Of a stretch of 36,021 bases of DNA, positions 1,832-18,594 are shown piece after piece (position 1 is the first letter of the stretch; each line of letters starts with the position of its first letter). This stretch comes from Dehalococcoidia bacterium (GTDB lineage Bacteria; Chloroflexota; Dehalococcoidia; UBA6926): assembly GCA_034420915.1 (NCBI GenBank), contig DAOUKW010000077.1, positions 1-36,021 on the forward strand, written 5' to 3'. The notes beneath the pieces were generated by a model. That model was not told the DNA's origin. It did not search any database and saw nothing but the letters and a program-made list of their open reading frames with translations. A program made the translations under genes and the position numbers.

Positions 1832-4246
1832 GTGGAATGCCGCGGACTGCACTGGTCGGACCAGGCAGCCAATCGGAGTGACGATTTGAGCCGACAGGAT
1901 GAGCGAGACCGAGAGAACGCGGCCCTCCGTGACCGCCTATCCCGCCTGAGCGAGGCCGGACTCCGCATCAACGAAGACCTGGACTTCGACACGGTGTTGC
2001 AAGAGGTGGTGGACGAGGCGCGATCTCTCACCTCCTCGCGCTACGGGGCGATCACCGTCTTTAATGAGGTTGGGCATATACCCGACTTCATCGTCTCCGG
2101 CTTGACCCGGGAGGAGCACCAGGGGTTTTGGGACATGCCGGAAGGGCCGGGATTCTTCGAATACCTCAGCAGCCTTGCCGAGCCCCTGCGGGTCCCGGAT
2201 ATCGAGGGCCACCTGAGAGAACTGAACATGCCTGAGTTCGTGCCCTCCGTACCGGTGACCTCCCTGCTGGTAGCCCCGATTCGCCACAGGGGCGTCGCGG
2301 TCGGCACCATCTATGTGGCTCACGGGGCGGATGGAAAGGAGTTCACGCAAGAGGACGAGGAGACCCTGGTTCTTTTTGCCTCGCAGGCGGCGATGGCCAT
2401 CGCCAACGCCCGCCGGCACCGGGAGGAGCAGCGGGCCAAGGCGGACCTGGAGACACTGATAGACACGTCTCCCGTTGGCGTGGTCGTCCTGGATGCGTTG
2501 ACGGGGGCCCCCAAGTCCTTCAATCGGGAAACCCGGAGGATCATCGACACCATACGGAATGCCGGGCAGTCACCCGAGCAGTTGTTGGAGGAGTTGACTT
2601 TCAGGCGGGCCGATGGACGGGAGGTCTCCCTGCGGGAGTTCCCGATGGCCGAGCTCCTCAGCACGGGAGAGACTGTACGGGCCGAGGAGATTGTCATGCG
2701 CGCCGCTGACGGGCGGAGCGTCACGGTACTACTCAACGCCACCCCCATCCTCTCCAAGGAAGATACGGTGGAGTCTGTCGTCGTCACGCTGCAGGACATG
2801 GCGGACGTGGAGGAACTGGAGCGGCTGCGGGCTGACTTCCTGGCGATGGTGAGCCACCAGCTGAGAACTCCTCTGACCTCTATCAAGGGCTCCGTCTCTA
2901 CGATTATGGATGCGGAGACGGACCTCGACCCTGCCGTGGTCCGCCAGTTCCTTCGGATCATCGAGGACCAGACCGATCACATGAACGCGCTGGTTGCAGA
3001 CCTGCTCGACGTGGCCCGTATCGAGACGGGAACGCTGCCGGTCAATCCGGAACCTACAGAGGTGGCCGTACTGGTGGATAGGGCACGCAGCGCCTTTGTC
3101 ACCGCAGGAGGCAGGAACAACCTCGCAATCGACGTTGACCCGAACCTGCCCCTGGTGATGGCAGACAGGCGGCGCATCGTCCAGGTGCTCAGCAATCTGC
3201 TGTTCAACGCGACCGATAACTCGTCAGAGTCATCCCTCATCAGGGTGACCGCTGTGTGGAATGGCGTTCACGTTGCGATGTCGGTGGCCGACGATGGGCG
3301 GGGCATCCCTGCGGAGAGGCTGCCGCACCTGTTTCGCAAGTTCTCTGCGACAAACTCCGAGGAGCATGGAGGGGACACGGGGCTTGGCCTCGCCATCTGT
3401 AAGGGCATAGTGGAAGCGCATGGGGGCCGCATCTGGGGCGAGAGCGACGGGCCGGGAATGGGGGCGCGTTTCACTTTCACCCTTCCATCTGTCGAAAACT
3501 CCGGAAGCGGCGCGGTCGACAGATCTTCCCCGACCTCAACGCAGCGTGAACTACGGGTGGAGGAGCGGGTGCGCGTTCTGGCCGTGGACGACGACCCCAA
3601 CGATCTCCGTTACATCCGCGACACACTTGCAAAGTCGGGCTACGAACCGATCGTCACCGGAGAGCCGGAGGAGGCGCTGCGCCTCGTGGAGAAGGGTAGG
3701 CCGGAGCTTGCGCTTCTGGATCTGATGCTCCCGGGAACGGACGGTATCGAGCTGATGAAGGAAATCCTCGATGTGGCCGATGTGCCGGTCATCTTCCTGT
3801 CTGCGTACGGACGGGAAGAACTGGTTGCCAGGGCATTCGACATGGGGGCCACGGATTATGTCGTAAAGCCGTTCTCCCCGACGGAACTCTCGGCGAGGAT
3901 CAGGGCAGCCCTGCGCAGACGGACGGCCGCAGAGCCGTCGGAGCCTTACGTGGTGGGCAACCTGACCATCGACTACACCGGGCGCAGGGTAACCCTTGCC
4001 GGAAATCCCGTCCATCTCACGCTGACTGAGTATCGCGTGCTGGGCGAACTCTCGGCCAATGCAGGGCAGGTGGTGACGTATGAGCGCCTTTTGGCTCGGG
4101 TCTGGGGTGCGAAGAACGCCGGGGACGTGAGGCCCATGCGCACCATCGTGAACAAAATCCGCCGCAAGCTGGGAGAGGACACCCAAAGGCCTGCTTATAT
4201 CTTCACCGAGCCCCGCGTGGGATACCGGATGCCGAGAGGGGAGTAG
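1832..4246 (+). CDS. Cytoplasmic hybrid sensor histidine kinase fused to a complete OmpR-family response regulator (GAF-PAS-HisKA-HATPase-REC-winged helix)
   Basis: GAF-like N-terminus (SSRYGAITVF...VAPIRHRGVAVGTIYV). PAS-like segment (LIDTSPVGVVVLD...). H-box FLAMVSHQLRTPLTSI. ATPase motifs (DDGRGIP, GDTGLGLAICKGIVEAHGGRIW). REC (VLAVDDDP...LALLDLMLPGTDG...VVKPF). OmpR-type wHTH (LTLTEYRVLGEL...RVGYRM). No hydrophobic TM segment. Start is uncertain: GTG 1832 per track, or TTG 1886 preceded by GGAG (1875..1878). Confidence 0.9.
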   Translation: MECRGLHWSDQAANRSDDLSRQDERDRENAALRDRLSRLSEAGLRINEDLDFDTVLQEVVDEARSLTSSRYGAITVFNEVGHIPDFIVSGLTREEHQGFWDMPEGPGFFEYLSSLAEPLRVPDIEGHLRELNMPEFVPSVPVTSLLVAPIRHRGVAVGTIYVAHGADGKEFTQEDEETLVLFASQAAMAIANARRHREEQRAKADLETLIDTSPVGVVVLDALTGAPKSFNRETRRIIDTIRNAGQSPEQLLEELTFRRADGREVSLREFPMAELLSTGETVRAEEIVMRAADGRSVTVLLNATPILSKEDTVESVVVTLQDMADVEELERLRADFLAMVSHQLRTPLTSIKGSVSTIMDAETDLDPAVVRQFLRIIEDQTDHMNALVADLLDVARIETGTLPVNPEPTEVAVLVDRARSAFVTAGGRNNLAIDVDPNLPLVMADRRRIVQVLSNLLFNATDNSSESSLIRVTAVWNGVHVAMSVADDGRGIPAERLPHLFRKFSATNSEEHGGDTGLGLAICKGIVEAHGGRIWGESDGPGMGARFTFTLPSVENSGSGAVDRSSPTSTQRELRVEERVRVLAVDDDPNDLRYIRDTLAKSGYEPIVTGEPEEALRLVEKGRPELALLDLMLPGTDGIELMKEILDVADVPVIFLSAYGREELVARAFDMGATDYVVKPFSPTELSARIRAALRRRTAAEPSEPYVVGNLTIDYTGRRVTLAGNPVHLTLTEYRVLGELSANAGQVVTYERLLARVWGAKNAGDVRPMRTIVNKIRRKLGEDTQRPAYIFTEPRVGYRMPRGE

Positions 4247-4300
4247 GCTGCGAACAATGAAACCTGTTGTGCCCGGCGGCGATGATCCGTCCAACAGATT

Positions 4301-6949
4301 ATGATGCGCAGGGGATTGCGACCGGTTGTCACGATTGCGCTTTTCTTCGCCATTACGGGCACAGCATGCGCCGACGCGGCACCGAGGCCAGGCTCCTTCT
4401 CCACGCCCACCAACACGCGGCAACCTGTTCCATCTCCCATCGTGTTGAATATCCAGTCCGATTCCAACACACCGGCGCCCAGCCCGACGCCGATTCCTTT
4501 GCCCGCGCCGAGTGCCCCAACCACGCCGGTTCCGACAGCAACACCTGTGTTGAACCTCGGGCCAACGCCGATTCCGATTGTTGTCCCGCCGTCGCACCTG
4601 GCCTCGGAACGGGTGGCGCTCGCCGTCATTCATAGGGCGATGGGCGGGAGTGTCTACAGTGACATACGGAATTGGTTGAGCGATGACCCTTTAGGGAAAT
4701 GGCACGGAGTGACAACCGACGAGAATGATAGGGTCATTGGGCTTGAGCTGGTGAATGCGGAGCTTACAGGGAGCATCCCGCCGGAAATTGGCAATCTTAC
4801 TCACCTGCAGACTCTCACAATTGCCGGCAACAGGGAGATGAGAGGGCCCATTCCTCCGGAGATTGGAAACCTGACCAACCTGAAGGAGCTTACCCTTAGC
4901 GCGACCGGCTTGTTGGGAGAAATCCCGCCGGAGATCGGCTCTCTAACCAACCTTGAACGTCTGACCATCTCCCATGACGGGTTGGGAGGTCCCATCCCGG
5001 AAGAGCTTGGCAATCTGACCAAGCTCACCTCATTGGATCTCTCCGGAAACCTGCTGAACGGAACGATTCCAGGTTCGCTTGGCAGGTTAACCAATCTCAC
5101 TGAGCTGAACCTTTATTCCAATATAGTGAACGGTCCTCTTCCCGAAGAGCTCTTCGAGCTGGAGAACCTGAAGACTCTAACCCTTTCAAGAAACGAGTTG
5201 GACATCCCCTTTCCCCGGGGTGTAATCAGTTTCCCCAACCTGGAAAACCTCCACCTGGGATACGCCGGGTTGACGGGACCAATCCCACTTGAATTGAGCG
5301 GCATGCAGAAGCTGAAGACATTGGACCTATTCGGGAACTCCCTTGTCGGGCCTATTCCGCCTGAAATCGGTGAGATGACGGCCCTTGAAACGCTGCAGCT
5401 TGGAGGCAATGAACTCACCGGACCTATACCAGAGGAACTGGGCAATCTTCGAAACCTGCAGGGCCTCTTCATCAGCGAGAATACGCTAACAGGGTCGATC
5501 CCGACATCACTTTGGGAACTGAACTTGCTGCAAACAATGAATCTCAAAGAGAACCGCTTGTCCGGCCAGATTCCGCATGAAATAGGCGGACTGTCGGAGC
5601 TGGTTACGATTGACATGTCCAACAACGCTTTGACAGGGTCCATTCCACCTGCATTGCTCGAGCTCCCTGCCATCCAGTCGGTAAATCTCTCCCGGAACAG
5701 CCTGTCCGGACGTATCCCTTCGGAGTTCCCTGACTCAAGCACTTTGCACACCCTGAATCTCTCTCACAACGATATTGGCGGGGTCATTCCGAATGAAATT
5801 CAAAGGTTCTTGAGCCTTCGATTCCTGGACTTATCAGGAAATAAGCTCACCGGTGGCATCCCCGTGGAATTCAGGGATATGCAGTCCTTGGAAGAAGTTG
5901 ACCTGTCCATGAACGACTTGTCAGGCCCACTCCCCCCCGAACTCGGAGAGATGAGCCTCATAAACGTGCTCGATCTTTCGGGCAATCGTCTTACTGGAAA
6001 CGTGCCGCCTGAGTGGGCCGGTATGAGGAAATTGAGATCGCTGAATCTCCGGGATAACGATCTCAGGGGCAAGGCGCCGACTGCGCTTCCCGATAGTGAA
6101 CTGACGCTTGATCTGTCCGGGAACAGGTTCAGCGGTAAGATTCCCGCCGAGCTTGGCGCGGCGAAACGCCTGAAGTCCCTTGACCTTTCCCGGAACGAGC
6201 TGACCGGGTGGATTCCTGAAGAACTGGGGGTATTGACCAACCTGGAGTCTCTCGATCTGTCCATGAACGGCCTGACCGGTCCCATCATTCCCAGGCTTGC
6301 AAATCTGTATCGTCTAAAGCGGCTCGACCTTGCCGACAATGGATTGTCCGGCGAGATTCCAACTACTATTGACGCCCTCCGGAACCTCAAGCACCTGGAC
6401 CTTTCTGATAACAGTCTCACCGGAACGATTCCTCCGCCGCTGGGTCATCTCAACGCCCTCGTGCACCTTGACCTCTCCGGCAATCGTCTCGAAGGCCCCA
6501 TCCCGACAGAACTTGGTAACATTTCACGTCTGACCTTCCTCTCCCTGTCAAACAACGATCTAACGGGTTCGATCCCTCCGGAACTGGAGCGCCTTTGGCA
6601 ACTGGAAACGCTGGCCCTTTCGGATAACCGATTGAGCGGCGACATCCCTGCCGGGATACGTACAGATCGATTACGCCACGTAGATCTCTCAAGAAACCAG
6701 TTGACCGGCCGGATCCCACCCTGGCTTGGGGGCCATTTCAATCTGGAGTCATTGCTGCTTTCGGAAAACCGGTTGAGGGGGACTATCCCGGCCCGATACG
6801 GTGAAGTTCCGAAACTGGCAGAGTTGCGAGTAGAGGGCAACCATCTGGAGGGTTGTGTTCCGGAGACCCTGGCGACTATTGATGTGTTGGTTGTCAGTCC
6901 GCAGGAGGGCGACACGGAAACATTGCCGTTCTGCCGGAAGGATCCATGA
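4301..6949 (+). CDS. Secreted (lipobox-like signal) giant leucine-rich repeat protein, about 30 plant-specific-type 24-aa LRRs
   Basis: MMRRGLRPVVTIALFFAITGTAC signal, Pro/Thr linker, N-cap (..NWLSDDPLGKWHGVTTDENDRVIGLEL). About 30 units of L..L..L.L..N.LtG.IP.ElGnL, counted by hand. C-terminal cap NHLEGCVP...LPFC. Confidence 0.9.
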   Translation: MMRRGLRPVVTIALFFAITGTACADAAPRPGSFSTPTNTRQPVPSPIVLNIQSDSNTPAPSPTPIPLPAPSAPTTPVPTATPVLNLGPTPIPIVVPPSHLASERVALAVIHRAMGGSVYSDIRNWLSDDPLGKWHGVTTDENDRVIGLELVNAELTGSIPPEIGNLTHLQTLTIAGNREMRGPIPPEIGNLTNLKELTLSATGLLGEIPPEIGSLTNLERLTISHDGLGGPIPEELGNLTKLTSLDLSGNLLNGTIPGSLGRLTNLTELNLYSNIVNGPLPEELFELENLKTLTLSRNELDIPFPRGVISFPNLENLHLGYAGLTGPIPLELSGMQKLKTLDLFGNSLVGPIPPEIGEMTALETLQLGGNELTGPIPEELGNLRNLQGLFISENTLTGSIPTSLWELNLLQTMNLKENRLSGQIPHEIGGLSELVTIDMSNNALTGSIPPALLELPAIQSVNLSRNSLSGRIPSEFPDSSTLHTLNLSHNDIGGVIPNEIQRFLSLRFLDLSGNKLTGGIPVEFRDMQSLEEVDLSMNDLSGPLPPELGEMSLINVLDLSGNRLTGNVPPEWAGMRKLRSLNLRDNDLRGKAPTALPDSELTLDLSGNRFSGKIPAELGAAKRLKSLDLSRNELTGWIPEELGVLTNLESLDLSMNGLTGPIIPRLANLYRLKRLDLADNGLSGEIPTTIDALRNLKHLDLSDNSLTGTIPPPLGHLNALVHLDLSGNRLEGPIPTELGNISRLTFLSLSNNDLTGSIPPELERLWQLETLALSDNRLSGDIPAGIRTDRLRHVDLSRNQLTGRIPPWLGGHFNLESLLLSENRLRGTIPARYGEVPKLAELRVEGNHLEGCVPETLATIDVLVVSPQEGDTETLPFCRKDP

Positions 6950-9381
6950 GCATGGGCTTCTTTACAGATAAACGACGTCTTCAGCAGCTGGGAACCGTTG
7001 CCCTTTTCACACTCAGTGCCTTTGTGCTGACGGTTGCCTGCGACCGTATCGAGCAAGAGACAGCCATTGTCACTCCCGGATCGACAGCCGGGCCAATTCC
7101 GGGCTTGGCGCTGCCCACCTCAACGCCAATTCCAACGCCCAGGGTCTTACCCACTCCAACTCCAACCAGTCTTCCCACACCCACTCCCTTGCCGACCGCC
7201 ACGCCGGTGCCGTCAATCGAAACGGACCGCGCCGCTCTTGTTGCCTTATTCGAGGCGACGGGGGGTGAAAACTGGCTGCACAAAGAGAACTGGCTGAGTG
7301 ACGAGCCAATGGGAACCTGGTCCGGTGTTACAACCCACGGGGACGGGCGGGTTGGCAGACTTTATCTGCAGGAGTACGGATTGTCCGGCGAGCTCCCACC
7401 CGAGATTGGAAACCTCACCAGGCTCAGAGGAATGTGGCTTGGCTCCAACCAACTGACTGGGCGGATTCCAGGCAGACTCGGCAATCTCACAGAGTTGGAG
7501 ACACTGGACCTTGAAGGCAACGAGTTGACCGGTCCAATCCCGCAGAACCTTGCCAATCTAACTGGGCTGATCCACCTCAGGCTTGCCGGGAACCGACTGG
7601 TAGGGCGCATTCCCCCTGATCTTGCCTTCCTGTCCGAGATCGAGCTGTTGGATCTCGCCGACAACGAACTGAGGGGGCCAATTCCGCTTGCGCTTGGCAA
7701 CATGACCAAGATGGAAGACCTGCTGCTTGGAGGCAATACACTGAGCGGCCCAATCCCACCCAATCTGGTCAACCTGAGCGACTTACGAGTGCTGGATCTG
7801 TCCGACAATGAGTTCACTGGCTCAATACCGACCGAGCTAGTCCATCTGACCAACCTTGAGACGCTGGACGTGTCCCAAAACATGTTGACGGGGTCGATAC
7901 CGATTGAGCTTACAAATATGCTCGCTCTGCACGTCCTCAATCTCTCGCAGAACAGACTGTCCGGCCCGATCCCTCCCGAATTCCAAAACCTCCTCAACCT
8001 CAGAAAACTGCACCTGGCTACCAATCAGTTGACAGGCTCCGTGCCTACGCAACTGGCAAACCTCTCCAACCTGAACGTTCTGGATCTCTCAAACAACTTG
8101 CTGACGGGCGAGTTCCCTTCGGAAATCGAGAAACTCAGAGACCTGCATGTCCTTAATCTCGACGGCAACAGCATCGCCGGGGTTCCAGTATCCGATCGAC
8201 CGGCGCTCATCGCGTTCTATCACGCAACGGGCGGGGATAACTGGCACAACAAGAGCAACTGGCTCAGCGATACTCCGATTGGGACATGGCATGGCGTGAA
8301 GAGTGACGGGGGGCGGCGTGTTATTGAACTACGGCTGGGCAACAACAACCTTGTGGGCCACATCCCCCCTGAGATCGGCAACCTGGCGCAGATGCAGTTT
8401 CTCAGTTTGACAGCCAATCAACTGAGCGGTGTCCTTCCTCCGGAATTCGGCAATCTGTCCAGCCTTGAGACCGCGTTTCTATTTCGCAACCAGCTGACAA
8501 CTCCAATCCCGAGTGAAGTGGCAAATCTCACGAGCCTGGAATTGCTGGACCTGTCACAGAATCCGTTGGATGACCTATTCCCCGTCGCATTGACGAGGCT
8601 GACAGGACTGGAAAAACTGACGCTTTCGAACTGCGGGCTGCGCGGTCGCATTCCGGCTGTCATCGGCAACATGGAGAACCTAAGGGAGTTGGAGCTTTCA
8701 CACAACAGCATTACGAGCCCTATCCCGGAGTCAATTACAGATCTCGATAGATTGTCGAATCTTGATCTGAGGGATAATGCACTTAGCGGTTCATTCCCGC
8801 GAGAAGTGGTTGAAATTGGGAGTCTAAGGTCGCTTGACCTTAGAAATAACGAGCTGACCGGCCCCATTCCGTCCTCACTGGCTCAATTGGAAGACATGTC
8901 CTATCTGTCTCTCGGCGGGAACGAGTTAACCGGACCGATCCCGCCCGAAATTGCCCGGATGAGCAGCCTTGGATGGCTCCTCCTTTCGGGTAATGAATTC
9001 TCTGGCTCCATTCCGTCCTGGATAGGAAGCCTGGAGGAGTTGTTGTATTTGGACCTCTCCCACAATCGACTAACCGGCCCTATCCCGACCGAGCTCGGCA
9101 ATCTCGAGAAGCTGCTCTATATGTCCCTGCAGGGCAATGAATTAAGCGGACCAATACCGGCCGAGTTCAGGAATCTGAAGGGCCTGCAGAGCTTTATCAT
9201 TTCTGACAACGAGATTACCGGCTCGATCCCCCCATGGATTGGCGAGATGCCAGGTATGTGGCGTATATGGGTTGATGGGAACAGGCTTGAGGGCTGCATT
9301 CCGAAACCACTCATGTACCTGAGCGAATTGGCTGTGAATCCGCAGCGAGGGCAGCAGACTGAATTGGAGTTCTGCGGGTAG
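6946..9381 (+). CDS. Secreted lipoprotein-like LRR protein with two N-cap+LRR modules (about 12 + 14 repeats)
   Basis: ATGA start/stop overlap with the upstream gene (6946..6949). Signal ..FTLSAFVLTVAC, then Pro/Thr linker. Cap 1 is DRAALVALFEATGGENWLHKENWLSDEPMGTWSGVTT (from 7225). Cap 2 is DRPALIAFYHATGGDNWHNKSNWLSDTPIGTWHGVKS (8191..8337). C-terminal cap NRLEGCIP...LEFCG. Confidence 0.9.
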   Translation: MSMGFFTDKRRLQQLGTVALFTLSAFVLTVACDRIEQETAIVTPGSTAGPIPGLALPTSTPIPTPRVLPTPTPTSLPTPTPLPTATPVPSIETDRAALVALFEATGGENWLHKENWLSDEPMGTWSGVTTHGDGRVGRLYLQEYGLSGELPPEIGNLTRLRGMWLGSNQLTGRIPGRLGNLTELETLDLEGNELTGPIPQNLANLTGLIHLRLAGNRLVGRIPPDLAFLSEIELLDLADNELRGPIPLALGNMTKMEDLLLGGNTLSGPIPPNLVNLSDLRVLDLSDNEFTGSIPTELVHLTNLETLDVSQNMLTGSIPIELTNMLALHVLNLSQNRLSGPIPPEFQNLLNLRKLHLATNQLTGSVPTQLANLSNLNVLDLSNNLLTGEFPSEIEKLRDLHVLNLDGNSIAGVPVSDRPALIAFYHATGGDNWHNKSNWLSDTPIGTWHGVKSDGGRRVIELRLGNNNLVGHIPPEIGNLAQMQFLSLTANQLSGVLPPEFGNLSSLETAFLFRNQLTTPIPSEVANLTSLELLDLSQNPLDDLFPVALTRLTGLEKLTLSNCGLRGRIPAVIGNMENLRELELSHNSITSPIPESITDLDRLSNLDLRDNALSGSFPREVVEIGSLRSLDLRNNELTGPIPSSLAQLEDMSYLSLGGNELTGPIPPEIARMSSLGWLLLSGNEFSGSIPSWIGSLEELLYLDLSHNRLTGPIPTELGNLEKLLYMSLQGNELSGPIPAEFRNLKGLQSFIISDNEITGSIPPWIGEMPGMWRIWVDGNRLEGCIPKPLMYLSELAVNPQRGQQTELEFCG

Positions 9382-9733
9382 ATCCTGACGATTACGCGTC
9401 CCCGACAGCTTACGAGAGCCTGGCTTCACTTAGTCCCTGGTCTCGTGGTGAGTTTGAGAAAGCCAAACCGGAGCAAGGAGTACCCCTGGGCGAACTGTAT
9501 TGCGAACCTTCCTATTGAAGGTTGAGTTGAAAGTGGCGTTTGGTAAGAGGAAACGGGGCGGGTAGGAGCGTAACGTCTTTGCGGGTCTAGTACTGTAGGA
9601 CAGGCCCACGGATGATTCTCAAGGGCATAGTGACCACCAGCTCAGGTCTTCCCGACTGAGAATTGCAGCACGAATCTGTATGGCGGTCTCATATAGGCGG
9701 GTGATTCTCCTTGGATATCTGCACATGCAAACG

Positions 9734-9821
9734 CTAGAGACTCTTCATTGAACTGGTAAGTGCCGAATCACACTCGCAAGGCGCCAATGTGTTTGCTCCA
9801 AACGAGAGCATTGCTGCAACT
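9734..9821 (-). repeat. Copy 1 of an 88-nt conserved non-coding element; abuts and overlaps the stop codon of the 9820..12804 gene
   Basis: Ungapped alignment with 13385..13472 gives 69/88 identical positions by hand count, including the identical 26-mer ctggtaagtgccgaatcacactc-context, gtttgctc and ctgcaact. Confidence 0.75.
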
Positions 9822-12804
9822 AGGAGTCGCAGAAAGGCAGGCCGAGGCGAACGAGATCGTTGTCAGCTTGGTTATTATCGCGCTCGCCCGTGATGGCGAG
9901 CAACTTGGCCGGTATGCATCCCCTTAGCCGGTTGTGGCCAAGCCACAGCACTTCCAGCTTGGCGAGATTGCCCAGTTCGGAGGGTATCATCCCGCTCAAC
10001 TGGTTTCCGAAGAGCGACAGGTGCGTTAGGTTGGCGAGGCCGCCCAGTTCTGGCGGGATGGGCCCGCTCAACCGGTTCGTGGAGAGTAACAGATGCGTCA
10101 GGTTGGCAAGGCTGCCCAGTTCCGTCGGTATCGTCCCGCTCAGCTTGTTACCACTAAGGTTCAGGTCTTCCAAATGAATGAGATCGCCCAGCCTGGTCGG
10201 TATTTCGCTAGTCAACTGATTGTGTGAAAGTCTCAGAGATTGCAGCTTGGCGAGATTGCCCAATTCCGCCGGTATCTCTCCACTCAACTGGTTAGACCAA
10301 AGCCCCAGCGCTTGCAATTTGGCAAGACTGCCAAGCTCCGCCGGTATCTCCCCTGTCAACTCGTTGTTACCGAGAGACAGGAATTGCAGCTTGGCGAGAT
10401 TGCCCAGTTCCGTCGGTATCGTCCCGCTCAACTGATTATCGCGGAGCGACAGATGCCTCAGGTCAGCGAGGCTCCCCAGTTCTGTCGGTATCGGTCCGCT
10501 CAACTGATTCCCCCCCAGGTCTAGTGCAACGACAGAACCGTCACAGTCGGTGAGTACCCCGTGCCATTGGTCCAGGGGACTGTCGCTCAACCAGTTCTGA
10601 CTGTTCTTCCACGACGCGCCGTTGGTGGCATGATGGAGCGCGACTAATGCGTTCCTCACTTCACTTGAGGGCGCGTCCTTGGGTGGTGGGGTATAGCCCT
10701 GTATCGGCCTGCCATGAAGACAGTTATAGAGAAAGCGATAGTCATCCCGTTTTGATTGCGGAGTGTTCTTCAAGAACGTCTGGTAAATCTTGTCCTCCGT
10801 CGCCTCTGTGCTCCTGCTGGTCTCGTACAATTCCCGCAGAGCGGACAATACCACCTCGTGCCCCAAGATGTGGTGCAATCCGGTCAGGAAGTGAAGGCCC
10901 AAGCGATATGGGCAGGTATTAACTCGCCCATCCTCCACTACACTCAATCCACTCGTGATCCACTCCTGCACATTCATCGTGCTCACGGAAAAGCAATCGT
11001 CGGATATCCGTACCTTTGAAGAGATGTACTCCTCATAGAAAGAGATTTCCAGATCAGCCTCTTTCAGAACGGCGTAGCTCATCAAGAATTCCGCCGCGCC
11101 CTCGGTAAGCCATTCCGGAGTACGTGCTCCTCCTCCACCAAAATAGAAGTGTGCCATCTCGTGATACAGTACCCTCTTGCGGGAGGCTGATTTGATTGCC
11201 GCGCGTGATCCGTTATTCACTCCAGCCGCATCACTTTCGGCTATCTGGAATTCGCTTTCCAGCAAAAGGATGACATCGGACTTCGGCCACGGAACTTCCA
11301 TGAATTCCTCCAAGTGCTCGGTGGCGAAAACCATAGCGTCCAGCACAGTATGCAGCTCGTCCTCCGACCGCCCGACCGCGAAGAGGTCCACTTCGCCCGC
11401 CAGGGGAAGATCGATCGTCTCCGACCACACCACGCCGCCCCGCACCATCTCATCGAAGAACTCCTGCGAAACTATGGCGCTTCCTATCGTGACGATCAGC
11501 GCAGCCTCCTCGGCGGTCAGCCCGTCCTCCACCCACGGCTCTCGCATGAGCCGCTGCGCCCGGCTGGGATGGTTGGAGCGAATCTTCCACAGACTGGACA
11601 TGGTGTCTTGCATGAGCTGCCCGGTCTGATCCGGAATGGTCGTCACCAGCACCGCCTCGTCAAGGCGGGTACTGGCTAGGCGGGAGACCAGACTGAGCAC
11701 ATCCAACTCATCGTGCGTGACCCCGTCGGAAAGCCACAGTGAGCCCGCTACTCGCTGAGACATCGACCGGTCTATTTGGGCGAGCTCCCCAATGCGGAAC
11801 AGTGCCCGCCGTTCGGCGTTGGTGGCGCCGTCCGCGATCCACGGCAGGTTATCCGTATTGAACTCCGAAACCCTTGCAGTCACTACAGCGGAGCAGTTGT
11901 TGGTCGTGTCAGACTCACCCGATACCGGCTCAGCGCATGCGCCATAGTAGTACACGCCCGGAGTGGGCGGCGCATGCGTAAGGATTGATTCGGCGCCACT
12001 ATCAGATGGATTCAGTCTGTGAATCTGGTCCGTCCCCACTTCAGTATCTGTGGACGTGATAGTCGCGTCAGTAGAACGGTAGTAGCGCAGCGTGGTGGGA
12101 CCAGATACCCATGCACCCTGGTTCCGCACGGAGAACCTCAGTACCAGGGTCTGACCTAGCATTGGGTTGCTATCACTCACTGCTGGCTCGACCACCGTCA
12201 GATCGGGTGGAGGTGGAAGCACGGTCACGGCGACGGAGGAGGAGCAGTTGTTCGTCCTATTGGACTCGTGGGGTACGGGCGCCACGCAGGCACCATAGTA
12301 GTATGTGCCCGGCGAAGGCGGCGTAACCGTGAGTATCGACTCAGTGCTGCTTGCGGATGCCTCCAGCCTTGCCACCAGGATCGAGTCCACCTCGTCATCT
12401 TCGGTCGAGATGGTTGAGTCGGTGGAGCGGTAGTAACGTAGCGTGGTGGGGCTCGATGCCCCGGGCCCCTCGTTCCGCACAGTGGCGCTCAGCGTGAAGG
12501 ACTGGCCTCCCATAAAGTCTCTGCCGCTTACTGTTAGCAGATCTACCACCAGGTCGGGCGGTGACGGTGTCGGCGTGGGGGTCGGTGATGGCGTTGCTGT
12601 GGGGGTTGGTGATGGTATAGGAGTGTGCGCCGGGGTCGAAGTGAGTGCAGGAGTTGCCGTCGGCGCGGGTGAAGGGGTGGCGGTGGGCATCGGCGTTGAT
12701 GTTGCCTCGTCGGAGCATCCGGCGACGAGCAGGATCAGTAGTGCCGTGCCAACAACAGCCAGACTCAGCTTGGGTCTTGACATTCCGAATGCCTCACTGG
12801 ACAT
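9820..12804 (-). CDS. Lipoprotein: 2 x CARDB-like domains + MA-clan HExxH metallopeptidase + N-capped plant-type LRR module (9 repeats)
   Basis: Signal MSRPKLSLAVVGTALLILLVAGC. The more likely start is ATG 12783, preceded by GAGG; the track start is 12804. Pro/Thr linker follows. Two paralogous about 110-aa units (PDL.V......GQ...L...VRN.G...S..TTLRYYRSTD..I...D.EV......YYYGAC..PV..ES..TNNCS). HEMAH at 11149..11163, then EWLTEGAAEF. Cap VRNALVALHHATNGASWKNSQNWLSDSPLDQWHGVLTD. 9 LRRs. C-terminal cap NRLRGCIP...LPFCDS. Confidence 0.9.
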   Translation of the reverse strand: MSSEAFGMSRPKLSLAVVGTALLILLVAGCSDEATSTPMPTATPSPAPTATPALTSTPAHTPIPSPTPTATPSPTPTPTPSPPDLVVDLLTVSGRDFMGGQSFTLSATVRNEGPGASSPTTLRYYRSTDSTISTEDDEVDSILVARLEASASSTESILTVTPPSPGTYYYGACVAPVPHESNRTNNCSSSVAVTVLPPPPDLTVVEPAVSDSNPMLGQTLVLRFSVRNQGAWVSGPTTLRYYRSTDATITSTDTEVGTDQIHRLNPSDSGAESILTHAPPTPGVYYYGACAEPVSGESDTTNNCSAVVTARVSEFNTDNLPWIADGATNAERRALFRIGELAQIDRSMSQRVAGSLWLSDGVTHDELDVLSLVSRLASTRLDEAVLVTTIPDQTGQLMQDTMSSLWKIRSNHPSRAQRLMREPWVEDGLTAEEAALIVTIGSAIVSQEFFDEMVRGGVVWSETIDLPLAGEVDLFAVGRSEDELHTVLDAMVFATEHLEEFMEVPWPKSDVILLLESEFQIAESDAAGVNNGSRAAIKSASRKRVLYHEMAHFYFGGGGARTPEWLTEGAAEFLMSYAVLKEADLEISFYEEYISSKVRISDDCFSVSTMNVQEWITSGLSVVEDGRVNTCPYRLGLHFLTGLHHILGHEVVLSALRELYETSRSTEATEDKIYQTFLKNTPQSKRDDYRFLYNCLHGRPIQGYTPPPKDAPSSEVRNALVALHHATNGASWKNSQNWLSDSPLDQWHGVLTDCDGSVVALDLGGNQLSGPIPTELGSLADLRHLSLRDNQLSGTIPTELGNLAKLQFLSLGNNELTGEIPAELGSLAKLQALGLWSNQLSGEIPAELGNLAKLQSLRLSHNQLTSEIPTRLGDLIHLEDLNLSGNKLSGTIPTELGSLANLTHLLLSTNRLSGPIPPELGGLANLTHLSLFGNQLSGMIPSELGNLAKLEVLWLGHNRLRGCIPAKLLAITGERDNNQADNDLVRLGLPFCDS

Positions 12805-13043
12805 GATGAAGTCCGAGGATTTGTGGAAGAATTCGCTTCACACAAGTTACTAATCCGGCGCCCATCACAGGGCTATGCAGTGCCCTCACCGTCCGGATCC
12901 ATGTTCCAGTCAGCGTAGACGCCCGTGCGGACCGTGGGCGACTGTAACTCGCCGGTTGTCTTGGCGACACCCCCAACGCTCGTGGGCTGGCCGGAGGTCT
13001 AAGTGTCCAGGTATGGCTGGAGGTGATGACGCCACGATTCTCC

Positions 13044-13346
13044 TCAGTCAGCCCAAAACCACGTCTTGAAGGATGCGGTGCAAGACGCCATTCCCAACAT
13101 CACGCCCACTCCAAGGCCGAAGAATACGCCGCGAGCGGAGCGTCCTCTTGCCATTAGTGCCCCGCCGATAATCGTGGCGATGGTCGAGCAGGCAATCATA
13201 AGAAAGATGATTAGCAGGAAGGCGAAATAATATGGGGCCTCGAAAGCCAAAGCAGCTTCTGAGGGGTCAATGGACGACAATAAGAGTACGGGCGCGATGA
13301 CAAGTGGCACCGCAGTAAGAACCAGTGCCATGCTGAACGTACGCAT
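13044..13346 (-). CDS. Small hydrophobic membrane protein (about 3 TM), function unknown
   Basis: 100-aa ORF with three hydrophobic stretches. AGGGAG lies a few nt upstream of ATG 13346. No recognisable family. Confidence 0.5.
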   Translation of the reverse strand: MRTFSMALVLTAVPLVIAPVLLLSSIDPSEAALAFEAPYYFAFLLIIFLMIACSTIATIIGGALMARGRSARGVFFGLGVGVMLGMASCTASFKTWFWAD

Positions 13347-13384
13347 GCCGACTCCCTGTCAGTGAGTTCAATGCCCAAATAACA

Positions 13385-13472
13385 CTAGGCATTCTGCATC
13401 GATCTGGTAAGTGCCGAATCACACTCTCTAGGCAACACTTTGTTTGCTCTGAGAGAGAGTGTTTCTGCAACT
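13385..13472 (-). repeat. Copy 2 of the 88-nt conserved element, upstream of the small membrane protein gene
   Basis: See 9734..9821. Contains a 9-bp perfect stem ACACTCTCT (13421..13429) / AGAGAGTGT (13454..13462). Confidence 0.75.
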
Positions 13473-13480
13473 TTTCACTC

Positions 13481-13509
13481 TTGCTGACATAAACGCAAAT
13501 GGCTAGATT
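13481..13509 (+). promoter_or_regulatory. Possible promoter of the NarL-type two-component operon
   Basis: TTGCTG (13481..13486), 17-nt spacer, TAGATT (13504..13509), about 70 nt upstream of ATG 13577. Weak hexamers. Confidence 0.25.
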
Positions 13510-13576
13510 AGTGGCCAACTACACACTGTCGTGACCGCCAAACACTCTACGCGTTCACACACTTACAGGAGAGAAC

Positions 13577-14854
13577 ATGCTTCAGGCACCTCGCCAAACC
13601 AGGGGCCTGTACTCGATGAAGGAAGTGTTCGGTGCAGTGCGGGCGCGGGTTTTTCAGATGCTCTGGCTCGACCCGGACGAGGTATCGTACGCAGCCAATA
13701 TTGCGGTGTGGGTTCGCTGGTTCCTCTGGGTCGGCGCCATAACCACTCTTGCCCACGAATCCGAGTTCACTTATTTCCAATCCCTACGCCAGACCATTTC
13801 GGTCATGCTCATGCACGTCTCAGTGGCCACCCTCAACGCCCATGTGCATTACCGTCTGCTTACCAAGCGTCGAGTGACGTGGCGTCACATGATTGTCCTC
13901 AGCGCGTTGGATCTAGCACTGATCACGGTCACCGTCGTCGATCTGGGGTACGACTCAATCTGGTTCGTCGGCTACTATCCCGCGCTTGCCATCTTCGCTG
14001 CCGTCTTCACTTCCGCTCTACTGAATCTCACCTGGACCACGGTCGCCTCCTCCATTTATGTCGGCGTGATTCTAACCGACGGGTCGGGTCTCACCTTCGA
14101 TGTGATCGATGAGAAGGCGCTCTATATAAGAGTGATTGCGATGTTCGGGGTAGTTCTTGTGATCAACTTCATCACTCGGTTCCAACGGCGCAGGGCGAGG
14201 GAGGCGATCGAAAGGGAAGGGGCGCTGCAACGAGAGCGGATCGAGCTTTCCCAGGCGATTCACGATACGGCCGCGCAGACGGCGTACATGATCGGCCTGG
14301 GCATAGACGCAGCCAAGCAGGTTGCCGGAAACTCGAACGAGGAGCTCACCTCCAGACTGGAAGCGACATCGCAGCTTTGCAAGACTGCCGTCTGGCAGCT
14401 GAGGCGCCCAATCGACATGGGTCGCATCTTCGATGGCCGGGAACTGGGCTGGACCCTGGACTCGCACGTTGCCACGTTCAGATCCATCACATCGATAGAG
14501 GCGGAGCTGAGGCAGAACGGTGCAGAGCCGCCACTTTCGGTTGAGGCAAAGAGTCGGCTGTTTACCATAGCGCATAACGCACTTGCCAACGCCTTCCGTC
14601 ATGCCGGGGCGAGCCGCGTGTTGGTCGACCTCGACTTCAGACGGGATGAACTCAGACTGTCGGTGTCGGACGACGGGGCGGGGCTTCCGGATGACTACGA
14701 GGAACGGGGCCACGGCTTCGCAAACATGCGGGCGGACGCTGAGCGTCTGGGCGGACGCCTTGTCGTTGAGGCCAGAGGCTTGACCGGGGGCGCGAGAGTG
14801 ACTTGTTTGGTGCCATTGGAACGTGGTGGAAAGGGGAGATACGTTGTCAACTGA
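13577..14854 (+). CDS. Polytopic membrane sensor histidine kinase, HisKA_3 (NarX/DesK-like) class
   Basis: AGGAGAG 4 nt upstream of the ATG. N-terminal half has multiple hydrophobic helices and no large loop. H-box LSQAIHDTAAQTAY. ATPase motifs NALANAFRHA, DDGAGLP, GHGFANM. Confidence 0.85.
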   Translation: MLQAPRQTRGLYSMKEVFGAVRARVFQMLWLDPDEVSYAANIAVWVRWFLWVGAITTLAHESEFTYFQSLRQTISVMLMHVSVATLNAHVHYRLLTKRRVTWRHMIVLSALDLALITVTVVDLGYDSIWFVGYYPALAIFAAVFTSALLNLTWTTVASSIYVGVILTDGSGLTFDVIDEKALYIRVIAMFGVVLVINFITRFQRRRAREAIEREGALQRERIELSQAIHDTAAQTAYMIGLGIDAAKQVAGNSNEELTSRLEATSQLCKTAVWQLRRPIDMGRIFDGRELGWTLDSHVATFRSITSIEAELRQNGAEPPLSVEAKSRLFTIAHNALANAFRHAGASRVLVDLDFRRDELRLSVSDDGAGLPDDYEERGHGFANMRADAERLGGRLVVEARGLTGGARVTCLVPLERGGKGRYVVN

Positions 14855-15497
14855 GACTCGTCGAATAAGGGTGCTGCTTGCGGACGACCATTCGATCGTG
14901 CGGGAAGGTCTTCAGTCGATGTTGGAGCGGTCCGAGGAGTTCGAGGTGGTGGGGGAGGCCAGGGACGGAGTGGAGGCAGTGGAAGCGGCGTCCAAACTCT
15001 CACCCGACGTAATCATCATGGATGTCATGATGCCCAAGAAGGACGGAGTGGAGGCATGCCGAGAGATCATGGAATCTCTCCCCGATACAAGGGTGATCAT
15101 GCTGACCGCCTCGACCGAGGCGGACGCTGTGATAGAGGCGATGGCCGCCGGAGCGGCGAGCTATCTTCAGAAAGTGTCCGGCGTGGACAATCTCCTGAGT
15201 ACGCTGAAGGGCGCGGCTGATGATGAGATGCGCATGCCGACCGAAGTGGTAAGGAGGGTCTTTGACAGGATACGGAGCGAGACACAATCGAAGGGAGAGT
15301 TCGACCTGACCCCGAGAGAGAAGGAGATACTTGTATCTTTCTGCCGAGGTATGTCATACGTCACCATCGCAGAGGCAAGGGGAGTCAAGCCGGTTACCAT
15401 CCGAAACGCCATCTACACCATCCAGGTGAAGATGGGTGTTTCCTCGAAGCAGGAGATTGTAGTCTTGGCAGTCCGGAACGGCCTCCTTGATGACTGA
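14823..15497 (+). CDS. NarL/LuxR-family response regulator
   Basis: REC (RVLLADDHSIVREGL...DVIIMDVMMPKKDG...) plus LuxR HTH (LTPREKEILVSFCRGMSYVTIAEARGVKPVTIRNAIYTIQVKMG). The likely real start is in-frame TTG 14844, preceded by GGGGAG. Either start overlaps the kinase stop (14852..14854). Confidence 0.9.
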   Translation: MVERGDTLSTETRRIRVLLADDHSIVREGLQSMLERSEEFEVVGEARDGVEAVEAASKLSPDVIIMDVMMPKKDGVEACREIMESLPDTRVIMLTASTEADAVIEAMAAGAASYLQKVSGVDNLLSTLKGAADDEMRMPTEVVRRVFDRIRSETQSKGEFDLTPREKEILVSFCRGMSYVTIAEARGVKPVTIRNAIYTIQVKMGVSSKQEIVVLAVRNGLLDD

Positions 15498-15680
15498 CCA
15501 CGCAAGCCGGTTTTGAGATAATGCAGCTTGGCCAGTGCGTGTATCACAGTGAAGGATTACCGCCGCAAGCTACGGAACAGGAAGTGGGCGCTTCAAGTGC
15601 ATTTGCCCTGTTCGTCAGTACCCTGACCAATGGCACGTAGGCCACTATTCGCCGCCGTTCCCGTTATTGGCATAACGAAA

Positions 15681-15752
15681 TACCCCTGCCGGGACTCGAA
15701 CCCGGGCCACCAGCTCCGGAGGCTGGTGCTCTATCCACTGAGCTACAGGGGC
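15681..15752 (-). tRNA. tRNA-Arg, anticodon CCG
   Basis: Hand-folded cloverleaf: acceptor GCCCCTG/CAGGGGT (G1-U72 wobble), D arm GCTC-AGTGGATA-GAGC, anticodon arm CCAGC-CTCCGGA-GCTGG, 4-nt variable loop, T arm CCGGG-TTCGAGT-CCCGG, discriminator A. No encoded CCA. Confidence 0.9.
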
Positions 15753-15896
15753 ATGATTCGTCCTGCCGACGCTTCATCATCATACTCTCCACGGCTCAAT
15801 ATCTGAGCCAGGAGGAGGACACATCCTTAGCCAATCGACCTCTCGCTGGGGATTGCTCATTCGCCATGTAGTAACGCATGAGCACAGGCTGATTTG

Positions 15897-17219
15897 CTAA
15901 CTACGCGTTTCGGCCGTCTGCTCCCTGCGCAAGCCCGGGGCGTTGTTGCGGAACGCGGGCACCAGCACGGCGGGTGCGATGAGCGTCGTCGCAATCGTCA
16001 TCAGGATCGCTACGCCAAAAAGATCCTGCCCAATCAGGCCCTGTGATACGCCGATGCCCGCCACAATCAGCCCCACTTCGCCGCGCGGCGCCATCCCCAC
16101 GCCCACGCGCCATGCCCCGATGCGGCTGAATCCCGCTGCCAGGGCCGGAATGCCGGATCCTGCCACCTTACCGATAATGGCCAGCACGACGATGATCAGC
16201 CCGAATCCAAGAGCATCAACCATGGCTTGAATGTCGACCATCGCGCCCATCACGACGAAGAAAATCGGCACCATCGCGTGGTAGAGGCCGTTCAACGGCT
16301 GATGGAGTTGATTGCGTAGTTCGGTCTGTGACAGGGCCAACCCCACGGAATACGCGCCGATAATCATCGCCAGCCCGAACATCTCTGCCAACGCTGCCGC
16401 AAATAGCCCGATGCCGAATACGATTGCGATTGCCGCGCCCTCCACACGGACGCTGTTGATCGCGCGGACAATGTACTTCGCGCCCAATATTCCACCGACC
16501 GTCAGCACGAGCCAGAAGCCAATCGCCTTGGCGCCGACGACTGCCACCTCGGTCCACTCAAACGAAGCCGCCTCTGTGGCTGCCTCAATGGACTCGCCTG
16601 CCGTCACGCCCACAACAACAGTTAGAATCAGGATCCCGAGCACGTCATCCACGACAGCAGCGCCCAGGATGGTCACGCCCTCCGGCGAGTCCAGGCGTCG
16701 TAAGTCGTCCAGAACGCGAGCTGTGATGCCGACGGAGGTTGCGGTCATGATGGTTCCCACGAACAGGGCAGGGGCCGAGAAGATGGAATCTGCAAAGCCG
16801 AACAGGACCGTCGCGTACGCGCCGAGCGCGAACGGGACAACCACGCCGCCAATGGCCACAAGACTCGCTTGGGGCACGAACCGCAGGAACGCCTTGAGAT
16901 CAGTGTTCAGTCCGGTCTCAAGCAGCAGGATGATGGCCGCCACTTGCCCAAATATAAAGAGTGTTTTGGGGACGGGAATGACCGCCCCCTCCTCCGGTGT
17001 TTCAAAAATCGGCTCGAAAAGAGCAGGGCGTTCGAAGCCGAACGGCTCGAACCCGTGTATCGCCACAGTGCCGATGATGATGCCCGCTACCAACTCCCCA
17101 ATGACCGCCGGTTGTCGCAGAACGCGCTCCGCGAACTCGCCCGCAAGCTTGGCGGCAACAAGGATAATGCCCAGTTGCATGGCGAGAACCACAGCCGAAT
17201 GGGTAAAATCTTCGCCCAA
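15897..17219 (-). CDS. Cation:proton antiporter (Na+/H+ exchanger, CPA-type membrane domain)
   Basis: 440 aa, about 12 hydrophobic helices. N-terminal signature LRQPAVIGELVAGIIIG is typical of Kef/NhaP-type exchangers. Confidence 0.8.
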   Translation of the reverse strand: MGEDFTHSAVVLAMQLGIILVAAKLAGEFAERVLRQPAVIGELVAGIIIGTVAIHGFEPFGFERPALFEPIFETPEEGAVIPVPKTLFIFGQVAAIILLLETGLNTDLKAFLRFVPQASLVAIGGVVVPFALGAYATVLFGFADSIFSAPALFVGTIMTATSVGITARVLDDLRRLDSPEGVTILGAAVVDDVLGILILTVVVGVTAGESIEAATEAASFEWTEVAVVGAKAIGFWLVLTVGGILGAKYIVRAINSVRVEGAAIAIVFGIGLFAAALAEMFGLAMIIGAYSVGLALSQTELRNQLHQPLNGLYHAMVPIFFVVMGAMVDIQAMVDALGFGLIIVVLAIIGKVAGSGIPALAAGFSRIGAWRVGVGMAPRGEVGLIVAGIGVSQGLIGQDLFGVAILMTIATTLIAPAVLVPAFRNNAPGLRREQTAETRS

Positions 17220-18380: not shown

Positions 18381-18386
18381 CCCCCG

Positions 18387-18420
18387 GTCATTCCCGCGAA
18401 TGCGGGAATCTGAAACGCAT
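18387..18420. repeat. REP-like palindromic element, copy A (core hairpin 18390..18409)
   Basis: gtcATTCCCGCgaatGCGGGAATctgaaacgcat, 7 nt after the stop of 18024..18380. The 34-nt unit recurs at 19411..19444. Confidence 0.85.
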
Positions 18421-18487
18421 TGCGCAGCGCAACCCTGCAGCGCCCAATCCTCTCATTCTGGTGAACGCCGGAATCCATCCGGTCTGC

Positions 18488-18510
18488 CATTCTGAGCGCA
18501 GCGAAGAATC
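18488..18510. repeat. Second REP-like family (cattctgagcgcagcgaagaatc)
   Basis: ATTCT...AGAAT inverted ends. I recognise this sequence type as a widespread bacterial intergenic repeat that yields spurious ..ILRCAQN../..SERSEES.. peptides. Single copy in this window. An extra small hairpin CCGGAatccaTCCGG lies around 18469..18483. Confidence 0.5.
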
Positions 18511-18594
18511 TCTCCCCCAAGCAGGAAAACTCTTGCGGCTCTTGCGATAATTGATAGTAGAAATCCCGCCTCGGATTGCTGAGGAGAAAACAGA

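Follow-up and report, generated by a model that had tools for sequence, protein, structure and literature searches.

Two direct repeats beside a two-component operon of a Dehalococcoidia bacterium are probably copies of a conserved promoter-operator module

The 36,021-nt stretch of DNA analysed here in full (the window; contig DAOUKW010000077.1 of assembly GCA_034420915.1, a Dehalococcoidia bacterium of the Chloroflexota) carries two similar 88-nt sequences, at 9734-9821 (copy 1) and 13385-13472 (copy 2), which bracket a gene for a lipoprotein with peptidase and leucine-rich repeat (LRR) domains and a gene for a small membrane protein. An earlier examination of the letters of the window, hereafter the sequence-only reading, had proposed that these repeats are either a structured RNA or the scar of a duplication or recombination. 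Our analysis places both in a family of ~100-nt modules found upstream of HisKA_3 sensor kinase genes in related bacteria. We consider it probable that they are copies of a conserved bidirectional promoter-operator module of the adjacent NarL-type regulator, acting at the level of DNA.

The repeat itself is beyond doubt. Both copies have the same orientation and align without gaps at 69 of 88 positions (78%), the count that the sequence-only reading had given, and they have an identical run of 23 nt in common (CTGGTAAGTGCCGAATCACACTC). The probability of such a pair is ~1.4e-15 (binomial, multiplied by all pairs of window positions), which rules out a chance match as its source. The earlier placement also stands: copy 1 overlaps the stop codon of the peptidase-LRR gene (9820-9822), and copy 2 lies 39-126 nt upstream of the membrane-protein ATG (13346). 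Two corrections are needed, namely that copy 2 stands in a divergent region, with a HisKA_3 kinase and NarL-type regulator operon on its other side, and that the family homology of copy 1 reaches leftward to ~9699. A BLASTN comparison of the 88-mer, a check that the sequence-only reading had put forward, revealed further copies in relatives: against 60 related genomes, it found four copies in G055, from another family, and two in G008, from the same genus. In the assembly that contains the window (1.86 Mb, 197 contigs, 86.6% complete), BLAST, a pattern search and the family model agree on the two copies and no others. A recent segmental duplication extending into coding sequence is ruled out, with similarity ending at 9730 and 9821 and the copies 78% identical. 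Each copy is, moreover, at least as distant from the other as from those in other families, which speaks against a recent origin. Since both match models built from other genomes, the repeat is not a private duplication.

The family was defined in this analysis by a covariance model, R1, whose training alignment includes the window copies, and by hidden Markov models (HMMs). An HMM built from 62 copies outside the window matches copy 1 with an E-value of 4.8e-12 and copy 2 with one of 8e-9. We scanned 78 loci encoding relatives of the window's kinase with the core HMM and obtained 70 matches, comprising 68 in 45 of these loci and the window's own two. Orientation relative to the kinase is as in the window for all matches except one, which is inverted (69/70), and every positive locus (45/45) has a copy no more than 700 nt upstream of a HisKA_3 kinase orthologue. 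Copy 2 conforms to this arrangement, ending 105 nt ahead of the kinase ATG, in the family orientation, between the two-component operon and the divergent membrane-protein gene. The module is confined to the closer relatives of the kinase, mostly those at least ~55% identical to it, and more distant paralogues do not have it. Copy number per genome is 2-8, with two in the window's assembly and 3-8 in each of five complete genomes; the copies mostly lie next to paralogues of the kinase. Two or three copies lie more than 1 kb apart at 16 loci, and copy 1 of the window is a distal copy of that sort.

Conservation within the family extends to both window copies. The module retains ~80% nucleotide identity across bacterial families. 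At 44 highly conserved columns, copy 2 agrees with the family majority in 42 and copy 1 in 39, compared with a family median of 43 and a minimum of 35. The positions at which the two copies differ tend to be those that are variable across the family (permutation p 0.014), and the copies have in common six states unlike the family majority. Among 151 genomes sampled evenly from the class, five contain the module (E<=1e-3), and these five, which belong to four families, are precisely the ones that contain close orthologues of the regulator (E<=1e-85).

What follows the module in relatives offers an explanation for the bracketing. Most related copies, proximal or distal, precede a long minus-strand open reading frame (ORF) that starts ~100-360 nt from the core, often after a conserved leader. 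These ORFs are hundreds of codons long, and in some cases exceed 3000. A conserved signal peptide, for example MTTSRRLAPLPLLL, stands at the start of many of them, and their products include giant proteins, LRR proteins and an RCC1-repeat protein. Because most copies have their own downstream signal-peptide gene, the bracketing would reflect a tandem array, in which the repeats are the promoter regions of successive module-gene units beside the sensor operon. Both window copies are atypical in this respect. Neither is followed by the family leader and a signal-peptide gene: after copy 2 come ~29 nt and then the 100-aa membrane protein, and after copy 1 there is the start of the leader only, with no ORF behind it.

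The internal organization of the module suggests two weak promoters and two operator boxes (Table 1). In an alignment of 53 distinct copies (alignment A2), the invariant columns A5, T9 and A10 correspond to the T-A-N3-T of a putative -10 hexamer, and the minus-strand consensus reads CTTACCA and, after 17 nt, T-A-N-N-G-T; the distance between the -35 and -10 blocks is fixed in 48 of 57 copies. Box 1 overlaps the candidate -35 by two bases and is centred ~42.5 nt upstream of the predicted minus-strand start. Its family form is AAGTG-N8-CACT(T/C), which in the window is palindromic at only four of five positions per arm, and it appears in 5-2-5 to 7-2-7 forms in L054, L043, L106 and L041 (handles beginning with L denote related loci), being perfect in L054 (GTGCC-GT-GGCAC) and 5/7 in L043 (AAGTGTC-GT-GGCACTC). 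Box 2 lies 19 nt from the plus-strand -35 block, a distance fixed in 33 copies. The plus-strand block, CTCTTGC..G.CA.AAACGAAAGTGGCTAGATT (also written CTCTTGC...GGCTAGATT), is conserved in most copies with a fixed 23-nt spacing and is the likely promoter of the sensor operon. Spacings of 26, 19 and 23 nt are fixed within the module, and box 1 and box 2 are separated by 35, 45/46 or 58 nt, depending on the class of copy, with ~46 nt in the window. Distal copies that have no plus-strand promoter still keep the core. By this geometry, the 88-nt core would lie mostly upstream of both transcription starts. Sigma-54 and ECF (extracytoplasmic function) promoter motifs were considered and rejected, as judged by reading the consensus, with spacings that do not fit.

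Table 1 Features of the module copies and of the genes around them (window coordinates)
Feature	Position	Strand	Basis
Module copy 2	13374-13475	-	R1 13380-13475, 87 bits; nhmmer 13379-13474; window-free HMM 13423-13374
Module copy 1, orphan	9699-9822	-	R1 9729-9822, 70.5 bits; window-free HMM 9772-9699
Candidate -35 TTACCA, minus-strand promoter, copy 2	13405-13410	-	GGTAAG invariant or nearly so in 53 copies
Candidate -35, copy 1	9754-9759	-	Homologous site
Candidate -10 TAGTGT, copy 2; predicted start ~13375	13382-13387	-	Conservation; 17-nt spacer to -35
Candidate -10 TAGCGT, copy 1; predicted start ~9724	9731-9736	-	Homology to copy 2
Candidate box 1, copy 2, imperfect palindrome AAGTG-N8-CACTC	13409-13426	.	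Arms nearly invariant, centre variable, 53 copies
Candidate box 1, copy 1, sequence identical to that of copy 2	9758-9775	.	Alignment
Candidate box 2, copy 2, GAGAGTGTTTCTGCAACT	13455-13472	.	Nearly invariant in 53 copies; ~53 nt upstream of predicted plus-strand start
Candidate box 2 variant, copy 1, GAGAGCATTGCTGCAACT	9804-9821	.	AGCATTG; resembles L074:9466
Candidate plus-strand promoter TTGCTG-17 nt-TAGATT; predicted start ~13517	13481-13509	+	Conserved block; absent from copy 1
LRR protein	6946-9381	+	Pfam
Sequence behind copy 1	9382-9698	.	ORF list, BLAST comparison, terminator scan
Lipoprotein, 994 aa: two CARDB domains, M1-like HExxH peptidase, LRRs	9820-12804	-	Pfam; N-terminal lipobox LLVAGC
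100-aa protein, three hydrophobic segments	13044-13346	-	ORF, translation; GGGAG 5-6 nt before ATG
Two-component operon	13577-15497	+	Pfam, translation
HisKA_3 kinase, multi-pass membrane, hydrophobic 200-aa N-terminus	13577-14854	+	Pfam, translation
Receiver + GerE/LuxR-type regulator	14823-15497	+	Pfam
tRNA gene, right edge of variable segment (~4247-15678)	15681-15752	-	Rfam tRNA, 71.3 bits

The boxes also vary together with the neighbouring regulator. At loci whose box 1 reads GGTAAGGC.GA.ACGCTA, the regulator has the recognition helix RNGLYSIQ(S/T)KLG without exception (7/7), and box 2 is changed in those loci too; a box 1 of the form GGTAAGTG...CAC goes with a helix of the RNAIYTIQVKLG type, in the window as in the other loci. 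The exception to this match is L074, with helix RNAMYNIQVKLG and a divergent box, and the comparison leaves out the L046 box. Candidate operator and helix thus change together in all seven variant loci, which effectively represent one evolutionary event.

From these observations we infer a mechanism in which the module, placed between the HisKA_3 kinase/NarL-type operon and divergent genes for large exported proteins, would serve both sides. A weak minus-strand promoter (TTACCA, 17 nt, TAGYGT) would have box 1 overlapping its -35, the position of a class II activator, with box 2 ~46 nt beyond box 1 in the window and ~35-58 nt beyond it across the family. In complete copies, the sensor operon would have a weak plus-strand promoter of its own directly past box 2. 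The phosphorylated neighbouring regulator would bind the boxes and activate the minus-strand surface-protein genes together with its own operon. Copy 2 would then be the working control region for the membrane-protein gene, the peptidase-LRR lipoprotein gene (first and second, respectively, in minus-strand order downstream of it) and the two-component operon. Copy 1 would be a second module left over from a tandem module-gene arrangement; its plus-strand promoter and its gene would have disappeared, along with most of the leader, and at most it might drive a short non-coding transcript.

Several points weigh against this interpretation. A consensus promoter scan of 9300-13700 called none of the proposed promoters, each of which matches the sigma-70 hexamers at ~7 of 12 positions; such weak hexamers would suit activator-dependent promoters, and the assignment draws on conservation and geometry. 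The classes of box spacing differ by 10-11 and 12-13 nt, so that helical phasing is only approximate. The whole intergenic region, spacers included, is far more tightly conserved than a promoter usually needs, which implies some further constraint. Binding of the boxes by the regulator is what the linkage and a single clade-level co-change point to, and that co-change, suggestive as it is, comes from one clade and is confounded by shared ancestry. Some of the copies in complete genomes stand apart from any intact two-component operon (L111 and L113, each preceding a ~2700-aa gene), an arrangement that would fit control in trans. Finally, copy 1 departs from the family at five of the conserved columns, which puts it near the bottom of the family range, and it may be dead.

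The sequence-only reading had favoured a structured RNA, either cis-regulatory or small, that is transcribed with the minus-strand genes and has a functional hairpin at 13421-13429 and 13454-13462. Its pair counts are exact: copy 2 forms nine of nine Watson-Crick pairs, and copy 1 keeps eight of nine on the minus strand (three as G-U) and five of nine on the plus strand. The minus strand of copy 2 also folds modestly better than shuffled sequences (z -2.05, with 3 of 200 shuffles as good; z -1.4 on the other strand), and an ACAC/GTGT inverted repeat hardly varies across the family. However, the 53 copies of A2, compared with 500 shuffles, show no covariation. Paired cells make up 83.8% of the stem, and 83.2% in the shuffles, 55 of which reach the observed value; the covariation score is 0.118 against 0.113; and two-sided changes affect three cells where 2.0 are expected, so that the covariance analysis suggested at the outset yields pairing equal to the shuffled control and no compensatory excess. 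Sliding the partner by -2 still pairs 81.5% of cells because the arms are AG/CT-rich, and they pair in several registers; only four pairs of the stem, those of ACAC/GTGT, are nearly invariant. Where only one side has changed, the result is mostly T.G, a pair that forms on the plus strand alone (107 cells, compared with 23 of the minus-only A.C/C.A kind); the family thus shows the opposite strand preference to that of the window. The RNAalifold consensus (-0.76 kcal/mol) contains no stem, copy 1 folds no better than shuffles on either strand (z +0.76 and +1.29), loop length differs by ~10 and 23 nt between classes, and the predicted transcription starts fall outside the core. Searches with Rfam 15, at the gathering threshold for the window and seven related loci and at E<=1 for 9300-13700, returned only the tRNA gene at 15681-15752. 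We regard a functional RNA hairpin as very improbable; the broader term 'cis-regulatory' finds support at the level of DNA, not RNA.

Under the promoter-operator interpretation, the two copies would differ in state. Copy 1 lies in a 438-nt gap between convergent genes, its right end abutting the peptidase-LRR stop codon. It keeps the core and the first ~25-30 nt of the family leader (HMM positions up to 74, of which the first ~48 are core), and departs from the family right after CTGCAACT, at the start of that stop codon. Another distal copy, L042:18859, ends at CTGCAAC, the same point as copy 1, and this common end appears to mark the minimal retained unit. Beyond the start of the leader, copy 1 is followed by 317 nt that match nothing but a 35-43-nt repeat-like piece. 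No credible ORF, family leader or gene remnant was found in 9382-9698, and blastn and tblastx comparisons of 9382-9700 with all related loci, made for a possible gene remnant, gave only that repeat-like match. We read copy 1 as a truncated orphan module with no gene behind it. An active copy 1 is also conceivable, as a regulator-controlled promoter for a ~250-nt non-coding RNA that would run from ~9724 down to a terminator-like hairpin (9470-9486, minus strand), downstream of the peptidase-LRR gene and pointing towards the 3' end of the LRR gene convergent with it. Its R1 score is within the family range of 52-93 bits, 39 of the 44 conserved columns, both candidate hexamers and an identical box 1 are kept, the homology stops abruptly at ~9699 instead of fading, and the hairpin stands ~240 nt downstream. 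Against this, box 2 is altered at otherwise conserved positions (GTGT to GCAT, TTTC to TTGC), 9382-9698 is conserved nowhere else save for the short repeat-like piece, and terminator-like matches are no commoner than in shuffled sequence (four against a mean of 2.8). An active copy 1 seems to us unlikely. The 35-43-nt piece itself, at 9476-9518 and overlapping the hairpin, recurs downstream of genes in L041 (13178-13212) and L084 (12538-12580).

Another alternative is that the repeats are sites or scars of recombination; the sequence-only reading had proposed, as its second possibility, a scar that delimits a 3.7-kb unit. A 3.65-kb cassette with the peptidase-LRR and membrane-protein genes would have been inserted into, or be excisable from, a single ancestral module, and recombination within the core would produce a hybrid copy on each side, comparable to attL and attR. 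Copy 1 does keep the family's left arm (the leader side, to 9699) and not the right, and copy 2 the right arm (plus-strand promoter and operon) and not the left, as expected of a split site. Genomes have completely different cargo between and beside their copies, the locus lies in a horizontally spread variable segment next to a tRNA gene, and the 23-nt exact run could support rare homologous exchange. In addition, one alternative right flank, with its start exactly at the plus-strand -10, recurs beside five distal copies found in different genomes. On the other hand, the genes of the variable segment include no recombinase or integrase, and attC-type core sites are absent; the 78% identity of the copies, no closer to each other than to those of other families, excludes a recent event; most distal copies in relatives come with an intact leader and gene of their own, as would be expected of tandem expression units; and two of the four G055 copies are inverted and accompany regulator-gene fragments, which points to untidy segmental duplication. 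The notion of a scar is weakly sustained by the repeated copies flanking divergent genes at 16 related loci; that of cassette borders is not, in view of the missing recombinase and attC core sites and of the downstream genes that most relatives' copies have of their own. The recombination-site reading, which the complementary arms and the variable cargo favour, has a low probability.

The locus as a whole has spread horizontally. A housekeeping protein of the window (24617-26479) is 95-98% identical within the genus and 58-62% in other families; the regulator is 80% identical in the same-genus genome G008, absent from G007, and 78-82% identical in other families. Module, regulator and variable cargo move together between bacterial families. 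Synteny with genomes of the same genus breaks between ~4247 and 15678 and resumes at the tRNA gene. The genes in this segment, two for LRR lipoproteins and those for the peptidase-LRR protein, the membrane protein and the sensor pair, have no same-genus counterpart at the syntenic place, and 4247-15678 looks like a tRNA-adjacent variable island without a recombinase. Among all ORFs longer than 100 aa in 1832-17219, which encode a hybrid two-component protein, LRR proteins, the peptidase-LRR protein, the kinase, the regulator and a Na/H exchanger, we found no integrase or recombinase.

Autoregulated divergent promoters of NarL/LuxR-family systems with membrane-embedded HisKA_3 kinases, such as the LiaRS/VraSR-type envelope stress systems, form one close comparison class, and NarL has 7-2-7 heptamer sites. 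The window resembles them in pairing a multi-segment membrane HisKA_3 kinase with a receiver and GerE regulator, in placing the control region between this operon and divergent envelope or surface genes, including one for a small membrane protein, and in having palindromic boxes beside or overlapping a weak -35, in some relatives of 5-2-5 to 7-2-7 form. It differs in that the module occurs in tandem expression units, is ~80% identical across families and travels horizontally with its regulator, and in that its operator is a candidate one. To our knowledge, the box sequences are unrelated to published NarL, LiaR or VraR sites. A literature search on sponge Chloroflexi, LRR proteins and two-component systems found nothing on such an element.

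Mobile repeats provide two other comparisons. Like integron attC sites, the copies are direct repeats of ~60-140 nt that bracket genes and contain an imperfect inverted repeat that seems to pair better on one strand. Unlike them, they have no integrase in the variable segment and no R'/R'' sites, their units span 3-9 kb with a promoter and leader of their own, some copies are inverted, and the strand asymmetry is not consistent across the family. An attC identity is rejected, since neither R'' (RYYYAAC) nor R' (GTTRRRY) is present on either strand of each copy plus or minus 19 nt, and the variable segment has no integrase gene. The module also shares with repetitive extragenic palindromic (REP) elements and miniature inverted-repeat transposable elements (MITEs) a short repeated intergenic sequence, a hairpin-capable core and, in one copy, a position just past a stop codon. 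In contrast to these, it has only 2-8 copies per genome, a nearly constant context (upstream of a kinase orthologue or of an exported-protein gene) and no terminal inverted repeats or target duplications that we noted; the low copy number and the fixed context led us to reject this class as well.

A looser, functional analogy exists with the vsp/vsa-type loci of Mycoplasma, in which conserved 5' expression regions are common to variable surface-protein genes. Related loci similarly have a near-identical promoter, a ~230-300-nt leader and a signal-peptide region before unrelated large exported proteins, with several units per locus and, in relatives, a leader poly-C run of variable length. Unlike those loci, we found here no site-specific invertase and no evidence of switching, and the window itself is without the full leader and the poly-C run. 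Module, leader and signal-peptide region might together form the conserved 5' anchor of a cassette-exchange or phase-variation system for giant and eukaryote-like surface proteins in host-associated Dehalococcoidia, a proposal that we offer as speculative and rather doubtful. Homologous exchange between copies could then swap, gain or lose cargo, the hybrid copies of the window could mark one such insertion, and the leader poly-C (from 5 to ~51 C) could switch expression, to which the sensor system could add environmental control.

Eukaryote-like surface proteins (LRR, RCC1, giant) are numerous in sponge-type symbionts of the Chloroflexota, and we know of no account of how they are controlled. 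A promoter-operator module would tie a defined set of surface-protein genes to one sensor-regulator pair through a recognisable DNA element and would thus define a testable regulon, with R1 as a search model for its members in metagenomes and the candidate operator boxes available for binding assays. Within the window alone, it would amount to an ordinary duplicated promoter region with one copy orphaned.

Further observations concern the leader and the flanks of related copies. Between the module and the ATG of the exported protein, the minus strand of several loci (L055:9376-9704, L069:9522-9810, L045:9302-9580 and others) has a conserved leader, extracted as stretches of 230-362 nt, that contains a poly-C run. 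This run lies 35-45 nt ahead of the start codon, has lengths of 5, 7, 9, 11-16 or ~51 (L055), and could be a slipped-strand switch. A small ORF that spans it (MALDRPVHAPETADG..., poly-Pro) was dismissed as coding, with variability alike at the three codon positions (0.63, 0.64 and 0.68 bits) and no sign of coding selection; a structured RNA was likewise dismissed, RNAalifold giving little structure (-14.2 kcal/mol, covariation term -0.18). The five distal copies with an alternative right flank (L049:6577, L035:3447, L057:2486, L044:1623 and L032:~6700 of G008) all lose family homology at one base, just before the plus-strand -10, and continue into another conserved flank (GCGCCAATCCTTCTCACGGACGACCGCAATCCCC...), so that the junction is a recurrent one.

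Partial copies of the module occur as well. A half-copy (model positions 42-96, that is, box 2) follows directly in tandem after a full copy at L037:18283-18337, L041:9479-9533 and, in G062, C1:308179-308233 and 1986954-1987009. The extra copies of G055 (L030:6461-7122 and L031:3176-3705) accompany regulator-gene fragments, in pieces that are 87% and 75% identical, one of them with a stop codon, and are partial duplications of the whole control region of a sensor locus with internal deletions.

Among the neighbouring genes, the 100-aa membrane protein has no Pfam match and no homologue among the related loci. Most related loci have an ORF of 100-132 aa, also without a Pfam match, between the module and the kinase gene (L041:9621-10016, L043:9590-9988, L035:9669-10022 and others); the window does not have this ORF and has a slightly longer kinase instead. 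Elsewhere in the window, 18381-18511 has numerous scattered matches of 77-88% identity in each genome of the same genus, consistent with a REP-like family.

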